From Gemmatimonadota bacterium (lineage in GTDB: Bacteria; Gemmatimonadota; Gemmatimonadetes; Gemmatimonadales; Gemmatimonadaceae): a DNA stretch of 64,000 nucleotides. The stretch's first letter is position 1, and each line of letters starts with the position of its first letter. Below the pieces are notes generated by a model, which did not search any database, was not told the DNA's origin, and saw only the letters and a program-made list of their open reading frames with translations. Shown piece after piece: positions 1,742 to 37,962 of the stretch. The stretch covers positions 1 to 64,000 of the forward strand of contig JANMLN010000057.1 in the NCBI GenBank assembly GCA_031372565.1, given 5' to 3'. Both the position numbers and the translations under genes were made by a program.

Positions 1742-1769
1742 GCGCGCGTCCATTCGCGTGTGAGGTATT

Positions 1770-1799
1770 GCGGGGGGCGCTGAAACCAGCGCCCCCCGC
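1770..1799. other. Perfect 13-bp GC-rich inverted repeat (intercistronic stem-loop)
   Basis: GCGGGGGGCGCTG-aaac-CAGCGCCCCCCGC between the ATPase and first permease; no U-tract follows. Confidence 0.75.
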
Positions 1800-1831
1800 T
1801 GCCGTAGGGGGGATGTCTCCTGCCCCCGCCG

Positions 1832-3076: not shown

Positions 3077-3079
3077 CTG

Positions 3080-4336: not shown

Positions 4337-4340
4337 CGCC

Positions 4341-5582: not shown

Positions 5583-5585
5583 CCG

Positions 5586-6851: not shown

Positions 6852-6896
6852 GCCGCGCCCCTTGGTGGGACCCCCGCAAGCCGTCAGCTTTCGGGG

Positions 6897-8141: not shown

Positions 8142-8143
8142 CG

Positions 8144-9406: not shown

Positions 9407-9496
9407 CTCGCCGCACCGGGCAAGCGCCGTGGGAGGCGCCCTGAACCCCGCGCCCGCCCACTGTGAGGTCACCCGCACCGCGACCACCTTTCACCT

Positions 9497-10738
<1,242 letters not shown>

Positions 10739-10739
10739 C

Positions 10740-20153: not shown

Positions 20154-20237
20154 GCGTGCGGTGGGGCGGTGGGGGGCGGGGCGGCGGCGAGCGGCGTCGG
20201 GGCGGTACCGACCGCCGACATGCCAAGCGAGAGGGCA

Positions 20238-20266
20238 AGGTTAGGCGCGCGCGAGGGGCATCGCAA
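20238..20266 (-). promoter_or_regulatory. Putative sigma70 promoter of bchI-bchD-puhE
   Basis: Minus strand TTGCGA (20266-20261), N17, TAACCT (20243-20238). Confidence 0.6.
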
Positions 20267-20283
20267 TGACATCGCCCGCCAAC

Positions 20284-20301
20284 TGTATCGAATGCTTGAC
20301 A
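20284..20301. promoter_or_regulatory. PpsR/CrtJ operator (TGT-N12-ACA)
   Basis: TGTATCGAATGCTTGACA is an exact consensus match and overlaps the crtF -35 box. Confidence 0.8.
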
Positions 20302-20324
20302 CTCCCCGGTACGCCTCGTAACGT
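20296..20324 (+). promoter_or_regulatory. sigma70 promoter of crtF
   Basis: TTGACA-N17-TAACGT. Confidence 0.75.
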
Positions 20325-20416
20325 CGCGCTCCACACCGCAGGCGCACTGCGGCGCGTGCGTCCGGTTGACGTACGATGGGGCGCCACCCGCGCCCCTTCC
20401 CTCCGCTTCGATCCGC

Positions 20417-21601
20417 GTGACCGTTCCCGAGGCCGCCACGACGGCGGCGCCGCCGACCGCCAGTGTTCGCCAAATTGCCGCTCCCTCGCGCAGCTGGCGT
20501 GACCGGCTGCTGGACCTGCGCGACCGGATCTACACGAGTCCGGCCTTTCAGAAGTGGGCCGCGTCGTTCGTGTTTACCCGCCCGATCGCGCTCAGCAGGG
20601 CGCATCGCGCCTTCGACCTCGCGTCCGGCTTCGTGTACAGCCAGACCCTGCTGGCTGTCGTGCGGCTGCGCCTGCTCGAGCAGCTGCAAGCGGGCCCCCG
20701 CTCCGTGGCGGAGCTGGCCAAGCACAACGACCTGCCGGTGGATTCCATGGAGCGTCTGCTCCGGGCCGCCCGTGCCTGTCGCTTGGTGGAACAGCGCCGC
20801 AGCGGGCTCTGGTCGTTGGGCATTCTGGGCGCGCCGTTCCTCGGCGATCCCACCCTGCCCATGCTCGTGGAGCACAACGCGGCGTACTACGGCGATCTCC
20901 GCGATCCGATCGCCCTCCTCTCCGGCGCCATGGCTGGCAAGACCGTCCTCGCCTCGTACTGGCCGTATGGTGACGCCGAGCGCGCCGCGCACGTGGAGAG
21001 CGCCGAGGCCAGCGAATACACCGCGATCATGGCCGCCACCCTTCCGCCGCTGGCCGAAGACGTCATCGATTCGTACGACTTCGGAGCGCATCGCGTGCAC
21101 ATGGACGTTGGCGGCGGCGAAGGGGTCTTCGTCAGCATGGCGGTCCGGCGCAATCCAGGGCTTCGCGGGATTGTCTACGACTTGCCAGCCGTGATCCCGC
21201 GCACCGAGGCGCGTCTGGCCACCGAGGGCCTCGCGGGTCGCGTGAGCGTCGCCGGGGGCAACTTCCACGCCGACCCCCTGCCGGTCGGGGCCGATCTCAT
21301 CACGCTCATCCGCGTGCTGCTCGACCACTCGGACGCGATGGCGGTCGCGCTCTTGAAGAAGATCCGTCAGGCGTTGCCGCCCAATGGCAGTCTCCTCATC
21401 GCCGAGCCGTTGTCGGGTCACCCGGGCGTCGAACGGGCGGCCGACGCCTACTTCGGCTTCTATCTGCTGGCGATGGGCCGCGGACGGTGTCGGTCGCGGG
21501 AGGAGCACGAACGGCTGCTGCGCGAGGCGGGATTCACGCGGTGCAGCGTGGTCCGGACCCGCTACCCGTTCCGCGCCTCCGTCCTCGTCGCGCGCCCCTG
21601 A
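20417..21601 (+). CDS. crtF: Carotenoid (hydroxyneurosporene-type) O-methyltransferase
   Basis: FQKWAASF..TRPIA, FDLASGFVYSQ, SAM motif MDVGGGEG, LIAEP; directly upstream of bchC. Start uncertain (TTG 20366 or GTG 20417). Confidence 0.9.
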   Translation: MTVPEAATTAAPPTASVRQIAAPSRSWRDRLLDLRDRIYTSPAFQKWAASFVFTRPIALSRAHRAFDLASGFVYSQTLLAVVRLRLLEQLQAGPRSVAELAKHNDLPVDSMERLLRAARACRLVEQRRSGLWSLGILGAPFLGDPTLPMLVEHNAAYYGDLRDPIALLSGAMAGKTVLASYWPYGDAERAAHVESAEASEYTAIMAATLPPLAEDVIDSYDFGAHRVHMDVGGGEGVFVSMAVRRNPGLRGIVYDLPAVIPRTEARLATEGLAGRVSVAGGNFHADPLPVGADLITLIRVLLDHSDAMAVALLKKIRQALPPNGSLLIAEPLSGHPGVERAADAYFGFYLLAMGRGRCRSREEHERLLREAGFTRCSVVRTRYPFRASVLVARP

Positions 21602-21677
21602 CGGTCGCGGAGACCCTACCCAAACGGGTGGTACCCCCGTCAAACCTTCGACTTGCAGCTACCCTAACGAAGTTCTG

Positions 21678-21695
21678 TGTCAACCTCCCTTGACG
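21678..21695. promoter_or_regulatory. PpsR-type operator overlapping the bchC -35 box
   Basis: TGTCAA-cctccc-TTGACG (palindrome with one mismatch); TTGACG, N17, CACCTT gives a plausible promoter. Confidence 0.7.
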
Positions 21696-21787
21696 GCTAG
21701 TGCAAACACGTGCACCTTAGCCGCGGTACTTAAGCCGCCGTCTGCAGTCCCTTCACTCACACCCCCCGATTTCGGGGAAGGATCAGC

Positions 21788-22729
21788 GTGGATACGCTGG
21801 CCGTGGTGTTTGAATCGCCCGAAGTCATGTCGATGCGCCGCCTGCCCCTCGTGCAGGCCGGCGACGCGGACGTGGTCGTGCGCATCGATTGGACCGGGAT
21901 CTCGACGGGCACCGAGCGGCTCTTGTGGACCGGCAAGATGCCGCCCTTCCCGGGCCTCGAGTATCCGCTCGTACCAGGCTACGAAGCGGTCGGAACGGTG
22001 GTGACCGCCGGCGCGACCTCAGGCCACGCCGTGGGCGATGTCGTCTTCGTCGCCGGGTCTCGCTCGTTCGAGGGGGTGCGCGGCCTCTTCGGTGGCGCGG
22101 CACGCACCCTCATTGTGCCAGGGGTCCGCGCGGTGACCATCGCGCCGCATGTGGCCGACAAGGGCACGCTGCTCGCGTTGGCCGCAACCGCGTACCACGC
22201 GATCACTGATGGCGGCGGCGCCTTCCCGGACCTTGTGGTCGGCCACGGCGCGCTCGGCCGCCTGATCGCGCGCCTAGTCCGCGCCCTCGACCCGTCGCAC
22301 GTGGTCACCGTCTGGGAAACGAACCCCGCCCGCCGCACCGGCGCGCTGGACTACCCCGTGATCGCGCCCGACGACGACACGCGGCGCGACTACGGGGTCA
22401 TCTGCGACGTGAGTGGGGTCGCCTCGCTCGTGGACGGGCTCCTCGCCCGCCTTCGCCCGCGTGGTGAGCTCGTGCTGGCCGGCTTCTATGACACGATCAG
22501 CTTCGTGTTCCCCGCCGCCTTCATGAAGGAGTCGCGCCTGCGCATCGCCGCCGAGTTCACGCCGGCGGATCTCGTGGCCGTCGCCGCCATGGCGGGTGAC
22601 GGTCGGTTGTCGCTTGATGGTCTGATTACCCACACGGCCCCAGCCAGCGAGGCCTCGGCAGCATATGCCACGGCCTTCGGCGATTCGGCTTGCGTCAAGA
22701 TGGTTCTCGATTGGAGGCATACCGCGTGA
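21788..22729 (+). CDS. bchC: Bacteriochlorophyllide a dehydrogenase
   Basis: GISTGTERLLWTG.MPPFPG..YPLVPGYE, VGHGALGRL, AFMKE.RLRIAAEF. Confidence 0.95.
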   Translation: MDTLAVVFESPEVMSMRRLPLVQAGDADVVVRIDWTGISTGTERLLWTGKMPPFPGLEYPLVPGYEAVGTVVTAGATSGHAVGDVVFVAGSRSFEGVRGLFGGAARTLIVPGVRAVTIAPHVADKGTLLALAATAYHAITDGGGAFPDLVVGHGALGRLIARLVRALDPSHVVTVWETNPARRTGALDYPVIAPDDDTRRDYGVICDVSGVASLVDGLLARLRPRGELVLAGFYDTISFVFPAAFMKESRLRIAAEFTPADLVAVAAMAGDGRLSLDGLITHTAPASEASAAYATAFGDSACVKMVLDWRHTA

Positions 22730-23742
22730 TTGAAAGCACCACTGGCAGCGCATCCGACGCCTTCGTGCAGCTTCGAAAGAACATGCAGGACGAAGCCGCG
22801 CAGGAACCGGCGCCCGTGTCGACCCGTCCGGTCACCAAGGAAACGCAGATCATCGCCATCTATGGCAAGGGCGGTATCGGCAAGAGCTTCACGCTCGCCA
22901 ACCTGTCCTACATGATGGCGCAGCAGGGCAAGAAAGTGCTGCTCATCGGGTGCGACCCCAAGAGCGACACGACCTCCCTGCTCTTCGGCGGCAAGGCCTG
23001 CCCGACCATCATCGAAACCTCGTCCAAGAAGAAGCTGGCCGGCGAAGCGGTCCAGATCGGCGACGTCTGCTTCAAGCGTGACGGGGTGTACGCCATGGAA
23101 CTCGGCGGCCCTGAAGTCGGGCGCGGCTGCGGCGGACGTGGCATCATCCACGGCTTCGAGATCCTCGAGAAGCTCGGCTTCCATGACTGGGGCTTCGACT
23201 ACGTCCTCCTCGACTTCCTGGGCGACGTGGTGTGCGGCGGCTTCGGCCTGCCGATCGCCCGCGACATGTGTCAGAAGGTGATTGTCGTGGCGTCGAACGA
23301 CCTCCAGTCGCTGTACGTCGCGAACAACGTCTGCAGCGCGGTCGAGTACTTCCGGAAGCTCGGCGGCAACGTCGGCGTCGCCGGCATGGTCGTCAACAAG
23401 GACGACGGCACGGGCGAGGCGGCGCGGTTCGCCGAGCTGGTGGGCATCCCCGTGCTGGCCAGCGTGCCGGCGCACGAGGACATCCGCCGCAAGAGCGCCA
23501 ACTACGAGATCATCGGCACCTCCACCTCGCAGTGGGGCCCGCTCTTCGCGGAACTCGCCGAGAACGTGGCGTCGGCGCCGCCGGTGCATCCGAATCCGAT
23601 GGTGATGGACAGCCTGCTCGACCTGTTCTCCCGCGATTCAGTGGGGCGCGACGTCGTGCTCGAGCCGGCCACGATGTTCGACATGTGCGGCAAGGAAGAC
23701 GTGATCAAGCCCTCCCTCGAAGTCGTCTACGACACCGTTTGA
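22726..23742 (+). CDS. bchX: Chlorophyllide a reductase iron protein X
   Basis: GGAGG RBS plus GTG overlapping the bchC stop; YGKGGIGKS, GCDPK.D, GRGCGGRG, DVVCGGF. Confidence 0.97.
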   Translation: MIESTTGSASDAFVQLRKNMQDEAAQEPAPVSTRPVTKETQIIAIYGKGGIGKSFTLANLSYMMAQQGKKVLLIGCDPKSDTTSLLFGGKACPTIIETSSKKKLAGEAVQIGDVCFKRDGVYAMELGGPEVGRGCGGRGIIHGFEILEKLGFHDWGFDYVLLDFLGDVVCGGFGLPIARDMCQKVIVVASNDLQSLYVANNVCSAVEYFRKLGGNVGVAGMVVNKDDGTGEAARFAELVGIPVLASVPAHEDIRRKSANYEIIGTSTSQWGPLFAELAENVASAPPVHPNPMVMDSLLDLFSRDSVGRDVVLEPATMFDMCGKEDVIKPSLEVVYDTV

Positions 23743-23747
23743 GCGAC

Positions 23748-25355
23748 ATGACACCGTCCGACGTGCGGAATGGCGCGGTTCCCACAGGCGAAGTCGTCTA
23801 TGACGACGTCGCCGTGGCGCCGATGCTGAACGATGGCGATGCGAGCCCGGCCGACGTGAACCTCGCGGCGACCCAGGGCGACGGCGTGGGCTGTCATGCC
23901 GGCGCCGCCGAGATGAAGAAGGCGGCCGCAGCGGCGGGCAAGAGCGAGACGCTCGCGCGCTACGCGGCGGATTACCCGACCGGTCCGCACGACCAGCCAC
24001 AGAGCATGTGCCCCGCCTTCGGCTCGTTGCGCGTCGGCCTGCGCATGCGTCGCACGGCGACGGTCCTCTCGGGCTCGGCGTGCTGCGTGTACGGTCTCAC
24101 GTTCACGTCGCACTTCTACGGCGCCCGCCGCACCGTGGGCTACGTGCCGTTCAACTCCGAGACGCTCGTCACCGGCAAGCTGTTCGAGGACATTCGCGAA
24201 GCGGTCTTCCAGCTGGCCGATCCGGCCAACTACGACGCGATCGTCATCACCAATCTCTGCGTCCCGACGGCCAGCGGCGTGCCGCTGCAGCTGCTGCCCA
24301 AGGAGATCAACGGCGTCCGCATCATCGGCATCGACGTGCCGGGCTTCGGCGTACCGACGCATGCGGAAGCCAAGGACGTGCTGGCCGGCGCCATGCTCAA
24401 GTACGCGCGCACCGAGGCCGAGCAGGGCCCGGTGATGGCGCCGCGCGGCGGCAAGACCGACAAGCCGACGATCACGCTGGTGGGCGAGATGTTTCCCGCC
24501 GACCCGGTCGGCATCGGCATGTTGCTCGAGCCGCTCGGACTCGCGGCCGGACCGGTGGTGCCCACGCGCGAATGGCGCGAGCTCTACGCGTCGCTCGACT
24601 GTGCGGCCGTCGCCGCGATTCACCCGTTCTATACCGCGGTGTACCGCGAGATGACCGCCGCCGGGCGCACCATGGTCGGCTCCGCCCCCGTGGGCCACGA
24701 TGGCACGGCCGCGTGGCTCGAAGCGATCGGCCAGACGTGCGGCATCGCCGCCGACAAGATCGCCGCGGCGCAGAACAAGTTCCTTCCGGCCATCAAGGGC
24801 GCGCTCGCCAGGATGCCGATCAAGGGCCGCATCACGATGTCGGGCTACGAGGGCTCCGAGTTGCTCGTGGCGCGCCTCCTCGTCGAGAGCGGCGCGGATG
24901 TGCGCTACGTCGGAACGGCCTGCCCCAAGACCGTCTGGTCGGACCCCGACCGCGAGTGGCTCGAGGCGCGCGGCGTCCGCATCCAGTACCGTGCGTCCCT
25001 GGAACAGGACGTGGCCGCGATGCACGAGTTCCAGCCGGACTTGGCCATCGGCACCACGCCCGTCGTGCAGAAGGCCAAGGAACTCGCCATCCCGGGCCTC
25101 TACTTCACCAACCTGATTTCGGCGCGGCCGCTCATGGGCCCGGCCGGTGCGGGTTCGCTCGCCACCGTCATCAACGCGGCGCTGGCCAACAAGCATCGGT
25201 TCGACGAGATGAAGGAGTTTTTCGAGGGCGTGGGCACCGGCTTCGCGACGGGCGTGTGGGAAGAGACGCCGGTGGATCACCCCGAGTTCCGCGAGCACTA
25301 CAAGCGTCACCTCACGCGCATCCAGAAGCGCAAGAAGGCGGAGGAGATGATCTAG
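23748..25355 (+). CDS. bchY: Chlorophyllide a reductase subunit Y
   Basis: [50 protein letters not shown]. Confidence 0.96.
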
Positions 25356-26809
25356 TGCTCGTCCTCGACCACGATCGCGCCGGCGGGTACTGGGGAGCCG
25401 TGTATGTCTTCACGGCCATCAAGGGACTGCAGGTCATCATCGACGGCCCGGTGGGGTGCGAGAACCTCCCGGTGACCTCGGTGCTGCACTACACCGACGC
25501 GCTGCCGCCGCATGAGCTGCCGATCGTCGTGACCGGGCTCGGCGAGGAGGAACTCGGCCAGCACGGCACCGAGGCCGCGATGAAGCGCGCCCACAAGACG
25601 CTCGACCCCGAGCTGCCGTCGGTCGTGGTCACGGGCTCGATCGCGGAGATGATCGGCGGCGGTGTGACGCCCGAAGGGACCAACCTCCAGCGGTTCCTGC
25701 CGCGCACGATCGACGAGGACCAGTGGCAGAGCGCGAATCGCGCCCTGTACTGGCTGTGGACCGAGTACGGCCTGAAGAAGGGGGTGCGCCCCGAGAAGGC
25801 GGTGCGTGCACCGGGAGCCAAGCCGAAGGTCAACATCATCGGCACGATCTACGGCACCTTCAACAGCCCGTCGGACATGACCGAGATGCGCCGCCTGGTC
25901 GAGGGGATCGGTGCCGAGGTCAACATGGTCTTCCCGCTGGGCAGCCATCTGCAGGACGTGCCGCGGCTGATCGATGCCGACGTGAATGTCTGCATGTACC
26001 GCGAGTTCGGACGCATGCTGTGCGAGTCGCTGGAGGTCCCGTACCTGCAGGCGCCGATCGGCCTGCACTCGACGACCAAGTTCCTCCGCACACTGGGCGA
26101 GATGCTCGGACTCGATCCCGAACCGTTCATCGAGAAGGAAAAGCACACGACCATCAAGCCCCTCTGGGACCTGTGGCGGTCGGTGACGCAGGACTTCTTC
26201 GGCACGGCCTCCTTCGCCATCGTGGCCAACGAGACCTACGCGCGCGGCGTCCGCCACTTCCTCGAGACGGAGATGGGGCTTCCCTGCACCTTCTCGTTCG
26301 CGCGACGTGCGGGGGTGAAGCCGGACAACGCCGCCGTGCGTCAGGCGATCAAGGAGAAGCCGCCGCTCATCATGTTCGGCAGCTACAACGAGCGCATGTA
26401 CATGGCGGAACTCGGCACGCGCGCGATGTACGTGCCGGCGTCGTTCCCCGGCGCGATCATCCGTCGGCACACGGGCACGCCCTTCATGGGCTACTCGGGC
26501 GCGACGTACATCGTGCAGGAAGTGTGCAACGCCCTGTTCGACGCGCTCTTTCACATCCTCCCGCTCGGCACGGAGATGGACAAGGTCGACGCCACGCCGG
26601 CGCGTCAGCACAAGGAGCTGCCGTGGACCGACGACGCGAAGTCGGCCTTCGATGACATCGTCGAGTCCTTGCCGGTGCTGGTGCGCATTTCGGCGGCCAA
26701 GCGGCTGCGTGATGCCGCAGAAAAGGACGCGCGCGATCTGGGCGACGACACGGTGACGCCCGATCACGTGATGGCCACGCGCAAGATGATCGCCGGAGTG
26801 CCTGCCTGA
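25355..26809 (+). CDS. bchZ: Chlorophyllide a reductase subunit Z
   Basis: GTG overlapping the bchY stop; [24 protein letters not shown]-terminal [11 protein letters not shown] domain. Confidence 0.96.
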
Positions 26810-26837
26810 TGTCCGACTGGGTCCTCCGGGGGCGCGC

Positions 26838-27710
26838 TCAGCGCGCCGATGCGTCGGCCACGAGTCCGGCGAGGAGTGCGGCTGCGTCGAGCGGTCGTTC
26901 CTCGTGGACCACGTGCCCGCCGCTCCACGAGAGGATCCTGGCCGACGGAAAGTGCTCCGCGAACACCTTGGCGAGCGGCACGGGCGGAATCCAGCGGTCC
27001 TCGGTGCCGAGCACGAAGGTGGCCGGCGACGCGAAGCGTGCCACCCGTGCGAGCAACGCGCGCAGGTCCCAGCCCGCCATGAGCGCGAGTGCCCCCTCGA
27101 CGTGCTTCGGATCGCGCATCAACCGCGCGTACCAGCCGCGCTGCGCCGCGGTGAGCGCTGATCCGGTGCTGTCGAGCAGCCGGTCGAGCACCGCCGGTTC
27201 GCGCGCGATGAGCGCGGCCACGGCGCGGACCGGGTCGGTGCGCAACAGCGGCAGCAGCCACGGCGCGATGAGCGCGGTGTACGCGCCCGGTGCTGGCACC
27301 AGTGATGGGTTGAAGCCGACGATGGCCGGGGCGTGCGCGCCGGCGTCGTGGGCCATGGCGACCGCGAGCGCTGCGCCGGCCGAATGGCCGGCAATGAGCG
27401 TGGGCGGTGGGAGCTCGAGCGAGACGAGGAGCGCGCGCAGCGCATCAGCGACGGCCGGGATGGTTGGTGGCGCGTCAGGCCATGCGCTCGTGAAGCCGTG
27501 TCCGGGTAAGTCGGGCACGACCACGGTGGCGACGGATGCCAGCGAGCGCGCGACGTCAGCCCACGAATGTGTCGAGGCGCCGGTGCCGTGCAACAATAGG
27601 ACCACCGGTCCGGCACCAAGTACTTGCACATGCCATGTGTTTGGGGGCAAGATAGCCGCGCGACTTTTTTCAGAATGCGGCCAGTCGGCTGGAATGCTGG
27701 TCAGGGGCAT
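26838..27710 (-). CDS. bchO: Alpha/beta hydrolase BchO (magnesium chelatase accessory protein)
   Basis: DWPH, WHVQ..G.GP..LLLHGTGASTHSW, PDLPGHGFT, GHSAG, GHVVHEE; photosynthesis-cluster context. Confidence 0.88.
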   Translation of the reverse strand: MPLTSIPADWPHSEKSRAAILPPNTWHVQVLGAGPVVLLLHGTGASTHSWADVARSLASVATVVVPDLPGHGFTSAWPDAPPTIPAVADALRALLVSLELPPPTLIAGHSAGAALAVAMAHDAGAHAPAIVGFNPSLVPAPGAYTALIAPWLLPLLRTDPVRAVAALIAREPAVLDRLLDSTGSALTAAQRGWYARLMRDPKHVEGALALMAGWDLRALLARVARFASPATFVLGTEDRWIPPVPLAKVFAEHFPSARILSWSGGHVVHEERPLDAAALLAGLVADASAR

Positions 27711-27822
27711 GCACGATTGTAGTACCGCAGTACCGTTTGGCGGCACCGAGCGAGCGCACTGAGGCGTTCGCTTCCCCGAACCGCGGGGGGCAGACCGCGG
27801 GATTTCCTGTTCGGAGGATAGC

Positions 27823-27960
27823 ATGAGCGACAACAACGGCGGCATGACGGAAGACGAAGCACGTCGGTTCCATGGCTACTTCATCATGGGCACGGCGGTG
27901 TTTGTTGGGACGGCGATCGCTGCCCACCTCGCGGCCTGGAGCTGGCGCCCCTGGTTCTAG
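27823..27960 (+). CDS. pufB: Light-harvesting antenna beta polypeptide (45 aa; not in ORF track)
   Basis: GGAGG RBS; hand translation MSDNNGGMTEDEARRFHGYFIMGTAVFVGTAIAAHLAAWSWRPWF shows EA..FH, BChl-ligand His and WxWRPW. Confidence 0.96.
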   Translation: MSDNNGGMTEDEARRFHGYFIMGTAVFVGTAIAAHLAAWSWRPWF

Positions 27961-28587: not shown

Positions 28588-29412
28588 ATGGCAATGCTGA
28601 GTTTCGAGAAGAAGTACCGCGTCAAGGGTGGGACCCTCATCGGAGGGGATCTGTTTGATTTTTGGGTCGGGCCGTTTTACGTCGGCTTCTTCGGCGTGAC
28701 GGCGGCCTTCTGCGCCATCATGGGCACGTTGCTCATCGTGTACGGCGCCGCCGTCGGACCGACCTCGAACATCTGGCAGATCAACATCGCGCCGCCCGAC
28801 CTCAAGTACGGACTCGGCCTCGCGCCGATGAACGAGGGCGGGCTGTGGCAGTTCATCACGATCTTCGCGATCGGCGCCTTCGTGAGTTGGATTCTTCGTC
28901 AGGCGGAGATCAGCCGCAAGCTCGGCATGGGGATGCACATCCCGTGGGCGTACAGCGTGTGCGTCTTTGCCTACGTGACGCTCGTGGTGATCCGTCCCGT
29001 GCTGCTCGGCGCGTGGGGACACGCGTTCCCGTACGGGATCTTCAGTCATCTCGACTGGGTGTCGAACGTCGGCTATCAGTACCTGCACTTCCACTACAAT
29101 CCGGCGCACATGGTCGCGGTGACGTTCTTCTTCACCACGGTGCTCGCGCTGGCGATGCATGGCTCGCTGATTCTCTCGGTGACGAACCCGGGCAAGGGAA
29201 AGATTGTCAAGACGAGCGAGCACGAGAACGTGTTCTTCCGCGATTTCCTGGGCTACTCCATCGGCGCAATCGGTATTCACCGCCTCGGCCTCTTCCTGGC
29301 GCTGTCGGCGGGGATATGGAGCGCGATCTGTATCGTGCTGGCAGGTCCCTTCTGGACGAAGGGCTGGCCGGAATGGTGGGGCTGGTGGCTCAACATGCCC
29401 ATCTGGCGATAG
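28588..29412 (+). CDS. pufL: Type-II photosynthetic reaction centre L subunit
   Basis: [46 protein letters not shown]. Confidence 0.99.
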
Positions 29413-29424
29413 GGGGCCACACTG

Positions 29425-30522
29425 ATGCTCGAATACCAGAACCTGTTCACCCGCGTGCAGGTGCGGCATGCCCCGGACCCTGGGCTCCCGCTGCCCGCCG
29501 GGTCGGACAAGCGCATCGGCACCGGATTCTTCAACTACTGGATCGGCAAGTTCGGCGACGCCCAGATCGGGCCGTTCTACCTCGGGACTTACGGGTTGCT
29601 CTCCCTCCTCTTTGGCAGCATTGCCATCGAGATCATGGGACTCAACATGTGGGCGTCCGTGGGGTGGGACCCGGTCGAGTTCGTCCGACGCCTGCCCTGG
29701 TTGTCACTGGAGCCGCCCTCGCCGGAGTACGGCCTCCGCATGCCGCCCCTCGCGAAGGGAGGCTGGTACCTGCTGGCCGGCTTCTTCCTCTCGCTGTCGA
29801 TCGGGCTGTGGTGGCTGCGCACCTACAAGCGTGCGAAGGTGCTCGGGATGGGGACCCATCTCGCGTGGGCATTCGGCTCGGCCATCTTCCTCTACAGCAC
29901 CTTCTTCTTCCAGCCGTTGCTGGTCGGTAGCTGGAGCGAAATGGTCCCGTTCGGCCTCTTCCCGCACCTCGACTGGACTGCTGCGTTCAGCATCCGGTAC
30001 GGGAACCTGTACTACAACCCGTTCCACGCCCTCTCGATCGTCTTCCTGTATGGATCGACGCTGTTGTTCGCCATGCATGCGGCCACGATTCTCGCGACCA
30101 GCCGACTGGGCGGCGAGCGTGAGATCGAGCAGATCACCGACCGCGGGACGGCCGCCGAGCGCTCGCAGCTGTTCTGGCGCTGGGTCATGGGCTTCAACGC
30201 CACGATGGAGTCGATCCATCGCTGGGCCTGGTGGTTCGCGGTGCTGACCACTTTCACCGGCGGCATCGGCATCCTGCTCACCGGCACGGTTGTCGACAAC
30301 TGGTATCTCTGGGCGGTCAAGCACCATGTGGCGCCGCAGTACCCGGCGGCCAACAAGACGCTGACGCCGGCCCTGCTCGATTCCCTCCGCGGCCAGTATG
30401 CGGGGCCGATGAACAAGGGATTCCCGGTCTACGCCGTTCCCGCGGCGCCGATCGCACCTGCCGTCACCGACACGGCCGCGATGGCCGCGCCGGCCGCGCC
30501 CGACACCGGGAGGAAGCCATGA
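29425..30522 (+). CDS. pufM: Reaction centre M subunit with C-terminal extension (365 aa)
   Basis: [53 protein letters not shown]. Confidence 0.99.
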
Positions 30523-31607
30523 GTGCCGTGATGGTTCGTCGTCTCTCCACGAGGGCGCTCGCCGCGAGCGCCCTCCTCCTCACCGCCTGCGATCCGATCA
30601 CGCCGACCAACAATCGGAATCGGGACTTCGTGCAGACCGGTGAGCGCGGCACTTCGATGGCGCAGATCTACAACCGCGACGCCAACGCCGCGAAGTTCAA
30701 GGCGGTCAGCATTCCGACCACGCTCCCCCCGGCGGGCTTGAGCCCGCCGGGGCCGCTGCCGTGGAAGAACGTGCAGGTGCTCAACGACATCAGCGTGGCC
30801 GAGTTCAACCGGACGATGATCGCCTTCAGCACGTGGGTCGCGGGCACCGGCAACTGTGCCTACTGCCACAACGTGGCGAACTTCGCCTCCGACACGCTCA
30901 ACAACGGCAAGCCGATCTACACCAAGCTCACGGCGCGCCGCATGATCCAGATGACCCGCCACATCAACGGCAACTATGCCAGCCATGTGGCCAACACCGG
31001 GGTCACCTGCTACACCTGTCACCTGGGCAAGCCGCAGCCGAACGGCCTCTGGTTCTACAGCAACGAGAGCCAGTACCTGCGGAACTACCTCGACTACACG
31101 GGTGCGCGCGTGGTCTCGCACACGGTCGCGCCATCGCCGGCCAACCGCTCGTCGGTCAAGCAGACCGAGAACACCTACGCCCAGATGATCTCGATGTCGA
31201 CGGCGCTGGGCGTCAATTGCACCTACTGCCACAACTCGCGGCAGTTCGCGAGTTGGGAGCAGTCGCCGCCGGCGCGCGTCAAGGCGTACCGCGGCATCCA
31301 GATGATCCGCGACGTGAACTCCAACTACGTCGCGCCGCTGGCGAGCATTCTGCCGGCCATCCGCCTGGGTCCCATGGGTGATGGCCCCAAAGCCCAGTGC
31401 AGCACGTGCCATAACGGGGTCTACAAGCCGCTCTACGGCGCACAGATGGCCAAGGATTATCCGGCTGTCTGGGGTCGTACCGAGTGGAATGGCATCGCGT
31501 TCCCCGGGTTGCATCCGGGCACGGACACCACGAAGGCCAAGGTGGCATCGGCGGCTGCCCCTGCCACACCGATCGCGGCCGCTGGCGCGGGATCGACGGG
31601 GCACTAG
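30519..31607 (+). CDS. pufC: Reaction-centre-bound tetraheme cytochrome c (lipoprotein)
   Basis: ATGA overlap with pufM; lipobox LLTAC; four heme motifs CAYCH, CYTCH, CTYCH, CSTCH; KNVQVL. Confidence 0.97.
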
Positions 31608-31638: not shown

Positions 31639-31676
31639 CAGGCCCCGCGCACCACGCGCGGGGCCTGCTCGTTTTC
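31639..31676 (+). terminator. Intrinsic terminator of the puf operon
   Basis: Perfect 12-bp stem CAGGCCCCGCGC-accac-GCGCGGGGCCTG followed by CTCGTTTTC. Confidence 0.8.
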
Positions 31677-31770: not shown

Positions 31771-32415
31771 GTGAGCACCCGCCGACTTCCCGTCTACATT
31801 CTGGCCGACGTTTCCGGCTCCATGCAGGGCACTCCCATCGAGTCCGTCAAGGCCGGCATCCGCCAGCTGCATCGCGACCTGATGAGCGACCCGCAGGCGA
31901 TCGAGAGTGCCTATCTCTCCATCATCACCTTCGCCGACAGCGCGCAGCAGATCGTGCCGCTCACCGAGGTCGCCCAGTTCCAGCCGCCCGAGGCGATGTC
32001 CGCGTCGGGCTCCACGAACTTTGGCGACGGACTGCGGCTCCTCCTCGAGTGCTTCGACGCCGAACTCGTGCGCACCACGGCCGAACAGAAGGGCGACTGG
32101 AAGCCGCTCGTGTTCATCCTGTCCGATGGCGCTCCCACCGACAGCGCCTGGAGCGAGTACGCGAGCGCCCTCACCGCCAAGCGCCCCGCCAACATCATCG
32201 CGCTCGCCTGCGGCGATCAGGCCGACACGAGTGTGCTCAAGCGCGTGACCGAGACGGTCATCGAGATGCGCGACATGACCCCCGACGCCTTCAAGTCGTT
32301 CTTCAAGTTCGTGTCGGCCAGCGTCAGGCAGACCAGCGCCAAGGTGGGCGCACCCGGAGCCGGGGGCGCGATCACGCTGCCACCGCCGCCGCCGGGCATC
32401 ACGATCGTCCCGTAG
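31771..32415 (+). CDS. terY: TerY-type vWA domain protein
   Basis: RRLPVYIL.DVSGSM.G.PIE (MIDAS DxSxS), DP.A.E, GSTNFG, KGDWKPLVFILSDG.PTD, C-terminal LPPPPP. Confidence 0.9.
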   Translation: MSTRRLPVYILADVSGSMQGTPIESVKAGIRQLHRDLMSDPQAIESAYLSIITFADSAQQIVPLTEVAQFQPPEAMSASGSTNFGDGLRLLLECFDAELVRTTAEQKGDWKPLVFILSDGAPTDSAWSEYASALTAKRPANIIALACGDQADTSVLKRVTETVIEMRDMTPDAFKSFFKFVSASVRQTSAKVGAPGAGGAITLPPPPPGITIVP

Positions 32416-32421
32416 TCGGCG

Positions 32422-33429
32422 GTGGCCGAGACCGAGACGCGCGTGATCATTCCGACGGCCGCGGCGCCCGCAGCGGAGCCGCCGGTCGTCGCCGCCACCT
32501 GGCAGGAGCGCGAGCCACCGGACCCATGGTGCCCCGCGGAACTCACCGCGCACCTCCCGTGGGCGGATGAGGTCGTGCGCGCGCACGCGCACACCTGGTC
32601 CGCGCGCGGCCGCGCTGGGTGGACGCTCGTCGCCGGCACCCGTCGCGGCCGCTCGCACGCGCATCAGGCGCAGTGGCGGGAAGACGCGGCTGGCTTCGCG
32701 TCCCTTCCCGCCGCTGACGGGAGCGCCCTGCACCTGCTCGTGGCCGCCGATGGCGCCGGATCGGCCCGCTGGAGCCGGATCGGCTCGGAGGCGGCGTGCC
32801 GGGCCGTCGTGGACTTCGCGGCCCTCCACGGGCCCAATGCGGCCGATGGCGGGGCCCTCGTCACGGGCGCTGCCGCCTTCGCCGTCGACGAACTCCGCCG
32901 CCTCGCCGCCGTCGGCGGCGCGCTCCCACGCGACCTCCGCACAACCCTCCTCGTCGCCGCCCTCTGGGGGCACCCGGGACACGAGCAGCTGGCCTGCACG
33001 CAGGTCGGCGATGGCGCCATTCTCGTGCGCACGAGCGATGGCAACGTCACGCAGCTCGGTGTCGGCGACAGCGGCGAGTTCTCGGGAGAGGTCACCTGCT
33101 TCGTGCCCGATCCGGAGGCCACCGCCCGCGCCGCGAGTGCACTGGTGCGGCGCGACGCGCGCGAGGTGACGCACTGCCTGCTGCTCACCGACGGCATCGA
33201 GGATCCGTTCTACCCGCTGGCACGCCGCGGTGCCGGGCTGCTGGCCCAACTCATGGACGGCGTGCGCGAGCCCGCTGAGCACTTTCAGCGGCAAGCGGTC
33301 CACGGCCCCGTCTTGGGCGACCCGGCGATGCATGAGCGACTGGCCGAGTGGCTCACCTTCGAGCGGCGTGGCGAGAACGACGATCGCACACTCGTGGCCG
33401 CCGTGCGGGCGGCAGCGGTGGAGCGCTGA
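32422..33429 (+). CDS. PP2C-family protein phosphatase (TerY-P type)
   Basis: RRGRSH...REDA, ADGAGSA, TTLL, VGDG, LLTDGI.D, DDRTL. Confidence 0.88.
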   Translation: MAETETRVIIPTAAAPAAEPPVVAATWQEREPPDPWCPAELTAHLPWADEVVRAHAHTWSARGRAGWTLVAGTRRGRSHAHQAQWREDAAGFASLPAADGSALHLLVAADGAGSARWSRIGSEAACRAVVDFAALHGPNAADGGALVTGAAAFAVDELRRLAAVGGALPRDLRTTLLVAALWGHPGHEQLACTQVGDGAILVRTSDGNVTQLGVGDSGEFSGEVTCFVPDPEATARAASALVRRDAREVTHCLLLTDGIEDPFYPLARRGAGLLAQLMDGVREPAEHFQRQAVHGPVLGDPAMHERLAEWLTFERRGENDDRTLVAAVRAAAVER

Positions 33430-33430
33430 C

Positions 33431-34867
33431 GTGAGCTTCCTCTCGGCACGCCTCACGGACGGTCGCACGATCGAGTTCGAGGATCGGGCCCTCAACTCGG
33501 GCGGCGAGAAAGTCGTGTTCCGCACACGCGACCGGCAGCACGTGGTCGGGTTCTTCCATGGCCGCCTGAGCGACCGCCGTGAACGCGCCGACCGGTTGCA
33601 GCGCATCATCACGCGCTACAATCCGACCACAGGCAAGCACGGTGCCTTCTGGCATCCGTACTTCTGCTGGCCTACCGGCGTTGTCGATGGCGACGGGGGG
33701 ATTCCGCCGCGCTTCGCCCAGCAGAACGGACTCGTCCTTCCCGCATTGGGCGTGGTCGCGCCGATCTACCGCAAGGAGTTCTTCTTCCGCGACCGGTTCG
33801 GCACGCTGCAGGAGAAGGAGGTGAAGTGGTTCACCGGGCGCAAGGCGGCGACGTTCGTCCCGGAGCACGAGTTCGGATCGTTTCTCACGCGCCTGCAGGT
33901 GTGCACGCGCCTCACGCGCGCCGTGCGCCGCATGCACTTCGCCGGACTCGCGCATTCCGACCTGTCGAACAAGAACGTGCTCATCGATCCCAAGGGAGGC
34001 GATGCGTGCGTGATCGACATCGACTCGCTCGTGGTGCCGGGCATCGCGCCGCCGTCGGTGCTGGGCACGCCGGGATACATCGCCCCGGAAGTGATGGCCG
34101 GTCGGGCCCGGCCGAGCATCGACACCGACAAGCACGCGCTCGCGGTGCTGCTCTACCAGATCCTGCTCAACCGGCATCCGCTGCAGGGTCGCAAGGTCCA
34201 CAGCCGCCGCTCCGCGGAGGAGGACGAGACGTTGTCGATGGGCGACAAGGCGCTCTTTGTCGAGCATCCACTGGATCACAGCAACCCGCCCGTGCACCCG
34301 ATCCGCGTGCCGATGGGACGGCTCGGACCCTATCTCGCGCCGCTGTTCGAGCAGACGTTCGTGCGCGGGCTGCACCATCCGGCGCGTCGCGCGGACGCCG
34401 CCGAGTGGGAAGTGGCGCTGTATCGCACGCTCAACCTCGTCCACCCGACGCCGAGCGGGCGCGAGTGGTTGGTCGTCGCACCGGGACTGCCGATGCAGTG
34501 CCCCTTCACGGGCGAGCGGCTGAAGCATCCGGTGCCGATCGCGCACTTCCTGCGCGACGCGCATGGCGCCGTCGCGGACGAACACCAGGCGTTGGTGCTC
34601 TTCCACCACCTGCGCCTGCAGGCGTGGCACCTGCGGCCCAACGTGCTGCCGGATGAGTCCGCCGACCGTACCGCGCTGGGCTACGTGTCGCATCATGACG
34701 GGGCGTGGTGGATGGTCAACCTCGGCGACGACGTCTGGCGGCCGTCACGGGGCGTGGCGGTCCATCGCAATGAAGCGCTGGAACTAACCCCGGGCCTCGA
34801 CGTGCGCGTGGGTGAGGGCGATCCGGCGCGCATCTTCCGCATCGAGTTCCGCAGTCCCACGGCCTGA
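33431..34867 (+). CDS. Ser/Thr protein kinase (TerY-P type) with probable degenerate FHA-like C-terminal domain
   Basis: GTG 1 nt after the PP2C stop; SGGEK, FCWP, HSDLSNKNVL, IDIDSL, GTPGYIAPE, D.HALAVL, HPL.G. Confidence 0.88.
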   Translation: MSFLSARLTDGRTIEFEDRALNSGGEKVVFRTRDRQHVVGFFHGRLSDRRERADRLQRIITRYNPTTGKHGAFWHPYFCWPTGVVDGDGGIPPRFAQQNGLVLPALGVVAPIYRKEFFFRDRFGTLQEKEVKWFTGRKAATFVPEHEFGSFLTRLQVCTRLTRAVRRMHFAGLAHSDLSNKNVLIDPKGGDACVIDIDSLVVPGIAPPSVLGTPGYIAPEVMAGRARPSIDTDKHALAVLLYQILLNRHPLQGRKVHSRRSAEEDETLSMGDKALFVEHPLDHSNPPVHPIRVPMGRLGPYLAPLFEQTFVRGLHHPARRADAAEWEVALYRTLNLVHPTPSGREWLVVAPGLPMQCPFTGERLKHPVPIAHFLRDAHGAVADEHQALVLFHHLRLQAWHLRPNVLPDESADRTALGYVSHHDGAWWMVNLGDDVWRPSRGVAVHRNEALELTPGLDVRVGEGDPARIFRIEFRSPTA

Positions 34868-34870
34868 GCG

Positions 34871-36334
34871 ATGGACGTTCGCGCGCTGGTGCGGCAGGCG
34901 CTCGTTGCCCGTGTGGCCGACACGACGTGGTGGCCACCCGCGGATGCCACGCGGTTCCACAACCGGTTGCTGGATGATTGCGGTGACGTGGCGCGCCCCG
35001 ACGTCGCGCTGCTCATGCAACTGCACGCACGCGACGTGGGCGGACGGCTGCCGCAAGCGGTGCTGTCGCACGCGGCGTGGCACCGCGAGCGCGCGATGCT
35101 CACGATGGTGTTCGCGCATGAACTCTCGGCCGAGGGCGGCGTGCACGAGCACGATCTGCTCTGGGCCGTGGAGAGCTGGGCACTCGCGCTGTCGGTGATC
35201 GACGCTGCCCTGCTCATCCCGCCACCACCGGTGCGCGCACCCAGGCGGACGGCGACATCGGGACCGCAGGCATCGGCCGGCCGCACCTCGCGTGCGGGAA
35301 CGGGCCCGAGCGGGACCGGCGCCTCCCCCTCGGTGCCCACCTCCTCCCCCTCGGTGCCCACCTCGACGAAGCGCGGTCGAGGGTGGCCGCACGGCCCCAT
35401 CGCGCGTGCTGCCCCCACCCCGAATCACTGGACGTACCGGTGGCCGCTCGACGCCATCACGTTCGGCATGATGGCCTTTCTGGGCGTCGGCGTCGCGGTG
35501 GCCGAATGGGCGATGGCGCGTGATGCCCGGCTCGCGCGCGAGCGGACGCAGCGGGCCGCGGTCACGGCGGCCTCGTCCGACGTTCGCAGCGCGAACCAGG
35601 CCACCACGCTCGTCGCATCGGCAGCAGGCAGCGTGATGGCGACGGCGACGCCCGAGCCGGAGGACGCCGTGCGCGCCCCGCAACTGCGCGTGCTGCCGAA
35701 CACCGGGCCTGTCGTGGCTGTGGCGGGGGATCGCGCGCCAAGCGCCGTGGACACCGTGCAGCTGCGCGACGGGCGTCTCCTTGTGGGCACGATCGGCGTG
35801 ATCACCGAATCGCACCTGTACCTGACCGACGCCGCGACCGGACTCCCCTTCGAGTTGCGCGTGGGCGCCGTGACGCGCGTGCGCACACACGCCGGTCGGC
35901 AGCTGCGCTTCGACGCCGCGGGTGACGACAGCGCACGGAGCCCCTCGCTGATCGTGCGCGGCGTGGGGGGACGCTATGTCGTGCGCCGACGCGTCCTCGC
36001 GGCCAGCGGCGACGCGAGTTGCGAGGGTACGGGGCGCGCCATCGATCCGGTCGAGCAGACCGACGAGGAGATCACGCATGCGCCCGGGAGCGCCACCTTC
36101 ACGATGCCATCGCGGCCCGGCGTGCACGGCACCATCGCACCCGACGGACGGTTCGAGACGGTTCTCCTGAGCGGCATCCGTGCCATGGGCGACTACAGCT
36201 GGCGCATGGTCGGCCACTTCACGCCGACCGGCTTCATCGCCGAGGCCGACGCCAGCACCGTCGTGGTCACACGCTGGCGCGACAGCCAGCGCTGCCGCTT
36301 CCTGACCGAGCTCACCGGAGTCCGCCGACCATGA
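34871..36334 (+). CDS. Uncharacterised single-pass membrane protein, paralogue 1 (helical N-domain, S/T/P linker, TM, two beta domains)
   Basis: 3 nt after the kinase stop; WAVESWALAL motif; TM AITFGMMAFLGVGVAVA; colinear similarity with the next gene. Confidence 0.8.
   Translation: MDVRALVRQALVARVADTTWWPPADATRFHNRLLDDCGDVARPDVALLMQLHARDVGGRLPQAVLSHAAWHRERAMLTMVFAHELSAEGGVHEHDLLWAVESWALALSVIDAALLIPPPPVRAPRRTATSGPQASAGRTSRAGTGPSGTGASPSVPTSSPSVPTSTKRGRGWPHGPIARAAPTPNHWTYRWPLDAITFGMMAFLGVGVAVAEWAMARDARLARERTQRAAVTAASSDVRSANQATTLVASAAGSVMATATPEPEDAVRAPQLRVLPNTGPVVAVAGDRAPSAVDTVQLRDGRLLVGTIGVITESHLYLTDAATGLPFELRVGAVTRVRTHAGRQLRFDAAGDDSARSPSLIVRGVGGRYVVRRRVLAASGDASCEGTGRAIDPVEQTDEEITHAPGSATFTMPSRPGVHGTIAPDGRFETVLLSGIRAMGDYSWRMVGHFTPTGFIAEADASTVVVTRWRDSQRCRFLTELTGVRRP
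35322..35363 (+). repeat. Perfect in-frame 21-bp tandem duplication encoding (SPSVPTS)x2
   Basis: CCTCCCCCTCGGTGCCCACCT occurs twice. Confidence 0.85.
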
Positions 36335-37962
36335 CGGACGAACGTCGCGTCGTGCAGGGCGGGCTGCGCCGCCTGATCAACCGGGAACCACGCTGGGCCG
36401 AATGGTCGGTCGATACGCTGCGCGGCCGCTTCCTCGACGAGGTGGGCAGCGACTACAAGCCGCTCGTGCTGCTGTTGCTGCGCGTCCACGACATGGGCAT
36501 TCCGCAGCGGTTGCCGCCCGCGATCATCGACGCGGCGCACTGGGATCGCACGCGTGGAACGCTCGGCCAGCGGCTCGCCGCGGAGCTGTTCCTGCAGCCC
36601 CAGATGGCGGAGTGGGCGGTCGAATCGTGGGCCTGGGCGCTGCACGTGATCGACGAGGAGTTTCTGCTCGATCCGCCGCAGGCACGGCCCGCGGCGGCCG
36701 TCGCGGCTGGACGCCCGGTCGCCGGCCGGTCGCCCAGCAGTGCGCCCCGTTCGACCAGCGCTGGTCGCTCGAGCTCCGCCGCGGGCCGCGCCCAAGCCCG
36801 CGCACCGATGCGCACCACGGCGTCGGTGCCAGCGACCTCGGCCGGCGGGGTGATGCGCTCGAGCAGTGCCGGCGGATCCGGTATCCCCGAGTGGGCGATC
36901 AAGGCGGCCTACATCTTCATCCCGGCGGTGTACGGCGGCTTCCTGCTCTTCATGGGCATCCAGATGGCGCGCAGGAAATCGTTCGATGCGACGCCTGCGA
37001 GATCGGCCGCGTTGGTCAGCGCGACCGCAGAGACGACGCCGAGCGGGGCTCCGCCCGTATCGAGCGCCGACCTCTCACCCCTGCGCGCCGCGACCGCGAG
37101 CCCCGTTGCGGACCCCTCTCGTCCGGCGCTCGACCCGGTCGTGCAGCCGTACGCCAACACCACCCCCACCGGCGCACCGACCTCCACCAATCAGGCGCTC
37201 GCTGCCGACCCGTTGCCCGGCGTCACGCGCAGTGCCCTGCCGATGACTGCGAACGACTCTGCCAAGGCCATGGCAGCCACGCCACCACGACGCGCGAGCT
37301 TTGCCACCGAGCAGGCGCCCCGCAATCCGACGTCGGCGGCCGGTGGACTCGACCAGGTGATCACGACCGATGGGCGGACCATGACCGGACGGGTGGAAGT
37401 GATTCGTGCGGGCTCGATCGTGTTCAAGGACCAGAGCAGCGGACTGCGCTACGAGTTGCCCAAGACATCCGTGGTGCAGGTGCTGACCGAGTTCGGCACG
37501 GTCGTGAAATTCGACGGCGGCGAGCGCGTTGCCGTGAGCCCGGTCGTGAAGCGGGGGGTGGCCGGCCGCTACCGGGTGCACTACGTGATCAACGAAGTCA
37601 CGGGTACCCCCGAGTGCGCGTCGCTGTGGAAGAATGCCGCGCCGCCTGATGCCGACACGGAGGTGCGACACCTTCCCGGCGCCGACACGCTCCAATTGGC
37701 ATTCGTGCGCGGCGGCACGTTCAACGCCGTGATGGATCGGGAGGCGCGCTTCACGTCGACGTTCGTCATCGTGCCGGATCAGGCGCTCACGGCCTCGGCG
37801 GTGACGTCGCGCATTCGCGGCACGTTCACCGCGACGGGGTTCTCGGGGCAGGTCACGCTCATCGGTTTTCGCCGCGCGCGGCCGGGGTCGGGACTGACCG
37901 ACACGGCGTGCCAAAGCGTGCTGGACGTGACGGGCACCCGCCTGCCGCCAGCGCCGCGATAG
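36331..37962 (+). CDS. Uncharacterised single-pass membrane protein, paralogue 2
   Basis: ATGA overlap; WAVESWAWAL; TM AAYIFIPAVYGGFLLFMGI; same C-terminal domains as paralogue 1. Confidence 0.82.
   Translation: MTDERRVVQGGLRRLINREPRWAEWSVDTLRGRFLDEVGSDYKPLVLLLLRVHDMGIPQRLPPAIIDAAHWDRTRGTLGQRLAAELFLQPQMAEWAVESWAWALHVIDEEFLLDPPQARPAAAVAAGRPVAGRSPSSAPRSTSAGRSSSAAGRAQARAPMRTTASVPATSAGGVMRSSSAGGSGIPEWAIKAAYIFIPAVYGGFLLFMGIQMARRKSFDATPARSAALVSATAETTPSGAPPVSSADLSPLRAATASPVADPSRPALDPVVQPYANTTPTGAPTSTNQALAADPLPGVTRSALPMTANDSAKAMAATPPRRASFATEQAPRNPTSAAGGLDQVITTDGRTMTGRVEVIRAGSIVFKDQSSGLRYELPKTSVVQVLTEFGTVVKFDGGERVAVSPVVKRGVAGRYRVHYVINEVTGTPECASLWKNAAPPDADTEVRHLPGADTLQLAFVRGGTFNAVMDREARFTSTFVIVPDQALTASAVTSRIRGTFTATGFSGQVTLIGFRRARPGSGLTDTACQSVLDVTGTRLPPAPR

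Follow-up and report, generated by a model that had tools for sequence, protein, structure and literature searches.

Downstream of the reaction-centre gene pufC in a contig from a Gemmatimonadota bacterium (JANMLN010000057.1; the window, by which we mean the whole 64,000-nucleotide stretch analysed), five + strand open reading frames (ORFs) at 31771-37962 encode a TerY-like vWA protein, a PP2C-type phosphatase, a Ser/Thr kinase and two co-linear paralogous membrane proteins. We found that this is a TerY-P triad joined by a fourth component that recurs elsewhere and has no name, a helical N-terminal domain with the signature 'WAVESW' (the N-domain), and that the Gemmatimonadota proteins that carry it, here termed receptors, are a lineage-specific form of that component embedded in the photosynthesis gene cluster. 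On balance we lean towards reading the unit as a split receptor-kinase system in which the N-domain docks ligand-binding modules onto the triad switch. TerY-P-type triads are common in bacteria, and we know of no input signals identified for them. A helical domain that is fused to many binding modules and is encoded beside the kinase makes the input side of the triad directly testable.

A compact and conserved gene unit

The five genes of the cassette are the vWA gene (31771-32415, 214 residues), the PP2C gene (32422-33429, 335 residues), the kinase gene (33431-34867, 478 residues including a C-terminal extension of ~200 residues), gene 4 (membrane protein A, 34871-36334, 487 residues) and gene 5 (membrane protein B, 36331-37962, 543 residues). 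With starts as called they are spaced by 6, 1, 3 and -4 nt; the kinase start is backed by homologues that begin at the same place and the PP2C start is less certain. Between the pufC stop at 31607 and the first gene there is a terminator-like hairpin on the + strand (31639-31667), with a 12-pair stem containing 11 G-C pairs followed by CTCGTTTTCG, a weak T tract. Both the ORF calls and the hairpin agree with the first-pass annotation, which had described five tightly packed genes after a puf terminator.

The arrangement is not peculiar to this contig. Searches with tblastn found TerY, PP2C, kinase and then one or two receptor genes, in the same order, at 33 of the 33 genome loci with enough flanking DNA, and the order recurred in 25 full-length metagenome loci. 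The five-gene order is thus kept over about 58 loci, with spacing that is tight or overlapping.

Published expression data for Gemmatimonas phototrophica support a single unit, as far as the available portion of that study goes (PMC11406998). Its Table S1 annotates RS06570 to RS06550 as VWA, PP2C, Ser/Thr kinase and two hypothetical proteins, and places all five at a log CPM (counts per million) of 7.75-8.5. The five genes were up in light, by +0.30 to +0.54 at 2 h and by +0.59 to +0.91 at 8 h, and pufBALMC was down at 2 h by -0.5 to -1.5. In these data the five genes behave as one expression unit distinct from puf, which fits the presence of the hairpin after pufC.

The vWA-PP2C-kinase triad

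To judge from their sequences, the first three genes are a genuine TerY-P-type triad. Their products match Pfam VWA (E 1.1e-9), PP2C_2 (E 2.3e-31) and Pkinase (E 7.3e-12), and the TerY-like protein shares 48-50% identity with short vWA genes on ter plasmids. A search with the kinase gave matches at <60% identity in 2318 plasmid records; in 2186 of these a single place accounts for 80% or more of the query, and the top matches reach 38% identity across 99% of the kinase. In the two plasmid records that we opened, from Citrobacter and Moraxella, the order is vWA, TerD, vWA, TerY-C, PP2C and, last, the kinase. The triad assignment made in the first-pass annotation therefore stands, because the kinase is a full-length homologue of the kinase of the ter-plasmid TerY-P triad. 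The residues of the metal-ion-dependent adhesion site (MIDAS) of the vWA protein, D13, S15, S17, T82 and D119, are intact, with no variation among 23 orthologues, whose mean column identity is 92%; the PP2C protein is about 40% identical to its orthologues. The C-terminal tail of the vWA protein, ITLPPPPPGITIVP (residues 201-214), is invariant in 22 of the 23, the 23rd row being cut by its coordinates, and it may be a polyproline docking peptide.

The kinases of TerY-P triads have been described with a zinc ribbon, in the triads linked to CoCoNuT, or with an OB fold, in the defence version, according to the part of PMC11090510 available to us. The extension of the window kinase appears by sequence to be neither. 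Residues 271-478 hold a single Cys and so cannot form a four-Cys zinc ribbon; they gave no Pfam match, even in a lenient search, and no PDB sequence match, and the PADLOC model STK_OB scored E 0.061 against the kinase. The ter-plasmid kinase shares this extension. A by-eye impression of an FHA-like tail was dropped for want of support from any tool. We take the three proteins to be cytoplasmic because they lack hydrophobic segments.

In its adjacent, same-strand genes for a MIDAS vWA protein, a PP2C phosphatase and a Ser/Thr kinase the unit is like the ter-plasmid triad (Anantharaman et al. 2012, as quoted in the available part of PMC11090510). It differs in having no Ter genes nearby and in adding two N-domain membrane proteins. 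No N-domain gene is annotated at the Citrobacter and Moraxella triad loci, at which no dedicated search for one was made. The YegL-PphC-YegI system of E. coli is built around the same vWA/PP2C/Ser/Thr kinase switch, and we know of no N-domain membrane partner in that operon. Its kinase and phosphatase are biochemically active, according to the portion of the published account that we could consult.

Two paralogous membrane proteins

Genes 4 and 5 align end to end (BLASTP E 3e-27, 25% identity over 561 columns), as expected of the paralogues that they had been taken for. In a tree of N-domains the copies from other loci fall into an upstream and a downstream clade (support 88/88), and gene 4 of the window is a long branch near the latter. 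The two genes are a pair of old paralogues. Neither product has a match in Pfam, NCBIfam or PADLOC, and neither has a kinase domain. Lenient Pfam searches gave no match for the N-domain, the barrel or the small beta domain. A PDB sequence search with the receptor profile was also empty, so no deposited structure has the membrane proteins among its chains.

The AlphaFold2 model of gene 5, built on a 26-row alignment, consists of a helical N-domain (residues 1-120, 36331-36690; predicted local distance difference test score, pLDDT, about 95), a disordered basic linker, one long helix (residues 187-218, 36889-36984), a disordered stalk and two beta domains. The stalk contains a conserved motif in the alignment (residues 294-321, 37210-37293); the first beta domain is small and five-stranded (residues 341-393, 37351-37509), and the second is an 8-stranded beta-barrel (residues 401-541, 37531-37953; pLDDT about 90). 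Gene 4 has a corresponding N-domain (residues 1-120, 34871-35230) and C-terminal beta-barrel (about residues 355-487, 35933-36331). Each protein has one hydrophobic segment, at residues 193-211 in gene 4 (35447-35503) and 192-210 in gene 5, and no signal peptide was found in either.

The motifs and the two aligned Cys residues picked out in the first-pass annotation proved to be real features of the family: L35, D36, P44, W95 and W100 are invariant in the 26-row alignment, as are C429 and C527 (gene-5 numbering). The single transmembrane helix and the large, beta-rich, non-cytoplasmic portion proposed there likewise find support in the hydrophobicity, the model and the fold matches. Its description of the linker ahead of the helix as rich in Ser, Thr, Pro and Arg holds in part. 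The linker is basic and Pro/Ala-rich across the family, but Ser/Thr richness is not a family trait: the 24-26% Ser+Thr of the window proteins sits within a range of 5-27% over the 18 proteins checked.

Fold searches matched the barrel to small closed barrels of eight strands, namely Cap15 (Z 10.1, root-mean-square deviation (rmsd) 2.7 over 98 residues), designed barrels (Z 9.4-9.7), the sensor domain of PknI (VIA Z 9.3, rmsd 4.0 over 121 residues; Foldseek E 1.6e-3), a Bacteroides lipid-binding protein (Z 8.8) and avidins (Z about 8.5). These scores are tied, and we therefore name a fold type and not a function.

A word-indexed search yielded 35 relatives of the membrane proteins and an exhaustive phmmer search of 1.84 billion representatives yielded 113. 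Full-length receptors were found in Gemmatimonadota only, the phylum of all 33 of the 33 genome loci. Their number varies: there are apparently three receptor paralogues after the kinase at G023:C468:3877-7750 and L085:4819-8127 (G and L denote genomes and loci of our collection) and one at L044 and in G015. A protein of 841 residues, P0100, that looked like a kinase-receptor fusion was rejected; its kinase alignment ends at residue 379 and is followed by ~150 unrelated residues, and we read it as a frameshifted gene call.

A widespread N-domain family linked to one kinase family

The N-domain is helical, spans ~110-115 residues and carries the motifs LL.D..G...R and A.WAVESWA.AL. When the Gemmatimonadota N-domains were compared by hhalign with 22 diverse N-domains the probability of homology was 99.06% (E 1.9e-18), and since the alignment spans 111 columns the homology covers the whole domain and extends beyond the motif used for seeding. 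Run against the whole genome of the window, the diverse profile found genes 4 and 5 alone (34889-35242, E 9.8e-10, and 36430-36687, E 7.4e-12). The N-domain has no model match in Pfam-A or NCBIfam 20.0 and is a candidate for a new family entry.

A profile search places at least 1293 proteins of 220-2000 residues in this family, from sources that include Competibacteraceae, Microcystis, Thiocystis and Chloroflexota. Their N-domains are fused to Lcl_C/DUF1566, FGE-sulfatase, MCPsignal, WD40, LRR, beta-helix, ankyrin, SH3, Sel1 and PP2C_2 modules. A scan of metagenomes, seeded by the pattern AxWAVE[SCT]W[AG], gave 25 full-length relatives of the receptors and 42 loci with the N-domain only, where it is N-terminal and the DNA is 41-69% G+C. 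Twenty-one host proteins from these loci were scanned for fused modules. A membrane helix joins the N-domain to a solute-binding domain in L090 and to TPR in L093. Elsewhere the fused module is LRR (L096, L103, L114), MCPsignal (L098), FGE-sulfatase (L101, L109, L112, L119), beta-helix (L107, L120, L121), Lcl_C/DUF1566 (L123, L127), HEAT (L128) or a double zinc ribbon (L117).

The neighbours of these genes bear on the tie between the N-domain and the triad, a co-occurrence check that the first-pass annotation had put forward and that came out in its favour. We scanned 83 of 126 adjacent ORFs in 26 of the 42 loci, chosen for usable flanks. A Pkinase gene of about 440-465 residues directly adjoins the N-domain gene in 13 of the 26, and a PP2C gene does so in one more; vWA, PP2C_2 and kinase occur together in three (L093, L098 and L120). 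These kinases belong to one family, being 38-63% identical to one another, and align to about residues 150-464 of the window kinase (E 1e-20 to 1e-29). On a plasmid of Methylomonas sp. AM2-LC (CP157007.1) genes for the kinase, vWA and PP2C_2 are followed by five N-domain genes, which carry Sel1 repeats, no known domain, a Tim44-like domain, Clp_N and a ClpX zinc finger.

Several N-domain proteins are of interest in themselves. P0149 (589 residues) has two tandem N-domains (residues 5-121 and 135-253) and a gyrase-type beta-propeller blade, an arrangement that hints that N-domains may work in pairs. FGE-sulfatase and DUF1566 are the usual variable domains of diversity-generating retroelements, and because many N-domain proteins end in one or other of these some may be hypervariable. 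At L102 a reverse transcriptase gene neighbours the N-domain gene (L102:559-2142 beside L102:2387-3472), and at L114 (L114:4462-7512) genes for Cas10-like and RAMP proteins of a type III CRISPR system lie directly upstream of an N-domain-LRR protein of 822 residues.

A proposed split receptor kinase

In the scheme that we favour, the products of the first three genes, all soluble and cytoplasmic, would together act as a phosphorylation switch made up of a TerY-like vWA adaptor, a PP2C phosphatase and a kinase of the TerY-P type, and the two single-pass membrane paralogues would serve it as receptors. The stalk, the small beta domain and the avidin/lipocalin-like 8-stranded barrel would lie outside the cytoplasm and the helical N-domain of ~115 residues inside it. 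There the N-domain would dock on the switch, with the kinase as its likeliest partner because the kinase gene is the most constant neighbour of the N-domain elsewhere. A ligand bound on the outer side would alter the set of targets that the kinase phosphorylates and PP2C resets, the signal presumably passing in that direction. The orientation on which this depends, with the N-terminus in and the C-terminus out, is predicted because there is no signal peptide, the triad is cytoplasmic and the fusions of the N-domain follow a consistent pattern: without a membrane helix it is joined to cytoplasmic modules (MCPsignal, HEAT, PP2C), and across a helix to a solute-binding domain of periplasmic type.

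The scheme resembles that of PknI of M. tuberculosis in combining an extracytoplasmic small beta-barrel sensor, one membrane helix and Ser/Thr phosphorylation. It departs from receptor kinases of the PknB/PknI type, in which kinase and sensor share one polypeptide, in that here they are encoded by separate genes: the kinase, devoid of any hydrophobic segment, is soluble, and the membrane protein has a non-kinase helical domain in its place.

More speculatively, and with less confidence than we attach to the split receptor kinase itself, the 'WAVESW' domain might mark a broadly distributed class of receptor or adaptor subunits that can be exchanged for one another on soluble vWA-PP2C-kinase switches, with an array of subunits that differ in their recognition modules serving a single switch, and this class might have been recruited in phototrophic Gemmatimonadaceae to report a periplasmic cue. 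If so, it would be a split and modular form of the receptor kinase, exemplified by the two receptors here and the five subunits of the Methylomonas plasmid, and the cells that receive the cue would be ones whose photosystem was acquired by horizontal transfer. In Gemmatimonadaceae the cassette may have a part in tuning phototrophy or the cell envelope of phototrophs.

A number of observations weigh against the split receptor kinase. The cassette encodes no DNA-binding, effector or output domain, and the response of the five genes to light in G. phototrophica was less than two-fold in the data available from PMC11406998. No kinase or PP2C gene adjoins the N-domain gene in 12 of the 26 loci, some of which offer flanks of several kb; all 26 were found through the seeding pattern, and near-duplicates (L092/L093 and L109/L122) reduce the kinase-positive loci to about 11 distinct ones. 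The structural comparisons are also of limited help. The matches of the modelled barrel are generic. The N-domain modelled alone is predicted well (pLDDT 92, predicted template-modelling score 0.84), and its best relatives were Bcl-xL (VIA Z 5.4, rmsd 4.2 over 95 residues) and a Foldseek hit in the PDB at E 2.4, with unnamed clusters alone in the ESM Atlas; in view of these values we assign it no fold. Finally, unrelated genes follow pufC in other Gemmatimonadota, and the position of the cassette may reflect nothing but insertion history.

An insert in the photosynthesis gene cluster

A tie between the cassette and the photosynthesis gene cluster of phototrophic Gemmatimonadaceae escaped the first-pass annotation. 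Flank clustering puts the cassette between pufLMC and a convergent block of puhC-puhB-puhA-lhaA-acsF-bchM-bchL-bchH; of the loci that could be evaluated, 31 of 33 have pufC no more than 1.6 kb upstream of TerY and 36 of 44 have puhC no more than 1.5 kb downstream. In the window, pufL (28588-29412), pufM (29425-30522) and pufC (about 30519-31607, start inferred) precede it on the + strand, as homologous pufL, pufM and pufC genes do in related loci, and its downstream neighbour is a GH97 gene. Ahead of puf, at 16442-27845, there is a fragment of the photosynthesis gene cluster with DUF3623 (puhE-like), a crtF-like O-methyltransferase, a bchC-like gene, a nitrogenase-like chlorophyllide reductase ORF and a bchO-like hydrolase; as acsF is encoded on a different contig (C47), this genome does not keep the cluster in one piece.

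The insert is already in print. The clusters of G. phototrophica and G. groenlandica have been reported to be split by 'hypothetical genes' between the puf and puh operons (PMC7844134, PMC8547001), and a cluster 'divided by a set of hypothetical genes' has been described as a distinct trait of three of nine metagenome-assembled genomes (MAGs) of one group and of none in two other groups (PMC8547001). The cassette is this set of genes: the position is the same, and so is the pattern of presence and absence among the MAGs, in those parts of the two papers to which we had access. The same parts treat the insert as hypothetical ORFs and name neither a TerY-P triad, nor two receptors, nor a wider N-domain family, and a full-text literature search turned up no paper that describes the N-domain or recognises the insert as a receptor-bearing TerY-P triad. 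Our analysis thus gives a name to the 'hypothetical' insert, which matters given that the acquired photosynthesis genes of G. phototrophica are reportedly regulated only minimally at the level of the transcript (available part of PMC11406998).

The setting suggests a second reading, in which the cassette is a regulator specific to phototrophy: a periplasmic or membrane cue, such as redox state or a pigment, quinone or lipid in the barrel, would lead through phosphorylation to an adjustment of the assembly or activity of the reaction centre and antenna. We regard this as rather unlikely, in spite of the linkage to pufC and puhC and the rise of all five genes in light. Among 301 sampled Gemmatimonadota genomes pufM is present in 15 and the kinase (threshold E up to 1e-30) in eight, all of them pufM-positive, which is to say 8 of 15 against 0 of 286 pufM-negative genomes. 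The linkage to puf is kept in the window despite the GH97 neighbour on the other side. In G015 the cassette, with its single receptor gene, sits among housekeeping genes on a different contig from the cluster, and that genome is nonetheless pufM-positive. In the pufM tree 26 cassette loci form one clade with the cassette-less G247, the window groups with G314 and G297, which also lack the cassette, and G015 groups with another family, so that the cassette occurs in three lineages and at least three changes are needed.

Other observations count against this reading. Seven of the 15 pufM-positive genomes lack the kinase, and the cassette is therefore dispensable for phototrophy; a receptor profile search of five of the seven found receptors in none. 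The genomes are related and hence not independent, so the counts do not distinguish function from common descent: the same figures would follow from a single old insertion passed on with the cluster. In G247, G314, G237 and G187 about 90-240 bp separate the facing pufC and puhC genes, and because the junction is closed there we regard the cassette as an insert at it. Other lineages have unrelated genes in the same place: a deacetylase follows pufC in G106, crtB and a hydrolase in G015, and rhodanese/MBL, TauE, DUF1295, SCO1/SenC and PCuAC genes in G297 (L052:2892-6915). Those of G297, at the edge of its photosynthesis cluster, are genes of copper and sulfur handling. No puf or puh genes were seen near L077 and L079, and two incomplete genomes of the window's own genus have the cassette with no pufM or bchYZ found, one of them (G001, 79% complete) possessing acsF and the other (G004, 85% complete) yielding neither these genes nor acsF. 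The wider N-domain family, moreover, is found in non-phototrophs such as Methylomonas and Competibacteraceae.

Defence or chance association as unlikely alternatives

We give still less credence to a role in anti-phage defence or other biological conflict, one of two options raised in the first-pass annotation; here the triad would sense infection and the membrane proteins would act as surface sensors or membrane-damaging effectors. TerY-P-like modules have been reported as stand-alone defence systems (Gao et al. 2020, quoted in the available part of PMC11090510), the cassette is patchy within genera (6 of 13 genomes in g35) and it sits at a variable junction. The best match of the barrel, Cap15, is the membrane effector of a cyclic-oligonucleotide-based antiphage signalling system (CBASS), but its score is tied with those of designed barrels and avidins. 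Some diverse N-domain loci adjoin type III CRISPR, reverse transcriptase, PIN, Prim-Pol/resolvase or restriction fragments, and the FGE-sulfatase, DUF1566, LRR and WD40 modules fused to the N-domain are typical of diversifying recognition proteins. The cassette itself gives this reading no direct support. PADLOC, searched at E up to 1, returned no family for the vWA or PP2C protein, and the kinase matched generic kinase cores alone (PD-T4-6, mad6 and PglW), with STK_OB as weak as noted above; the three proteins do not all match the profile models of a Gao-type TerY-P system. There is no nuclease, pore-forming or NAD-degrading domain. The receptor genes were found in Gemmatimonadota only, and the synteny and flanks are stable across a whole genus, with the vWA protein at its 92% column identity, unlike a fast-moving defence island.

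That the triad and two lineage-specific membrane genes are mere passengers, side by side by chance and without a joint function, is a reading already disfavoured and one that we consider highly improbable: the junction after pufC does gather unrelated genes in other lineages, but the five-gene order and tight or overlapping spacing persist over about 58 loci, the genes are coherently regulated in the available data of PMC11406998, and the N-domain is independently linked to the same kinase family in unrelated bacteria.

Other genes of the window

Far upstream of the cassette, the window carries an ABC ATPase gene followed by five tandem paralogues of a MacB-like permease (MacB_PCD and FtsX domains) at 923-11984. 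An HlyD-like gene lies beside this array, at 201-923.

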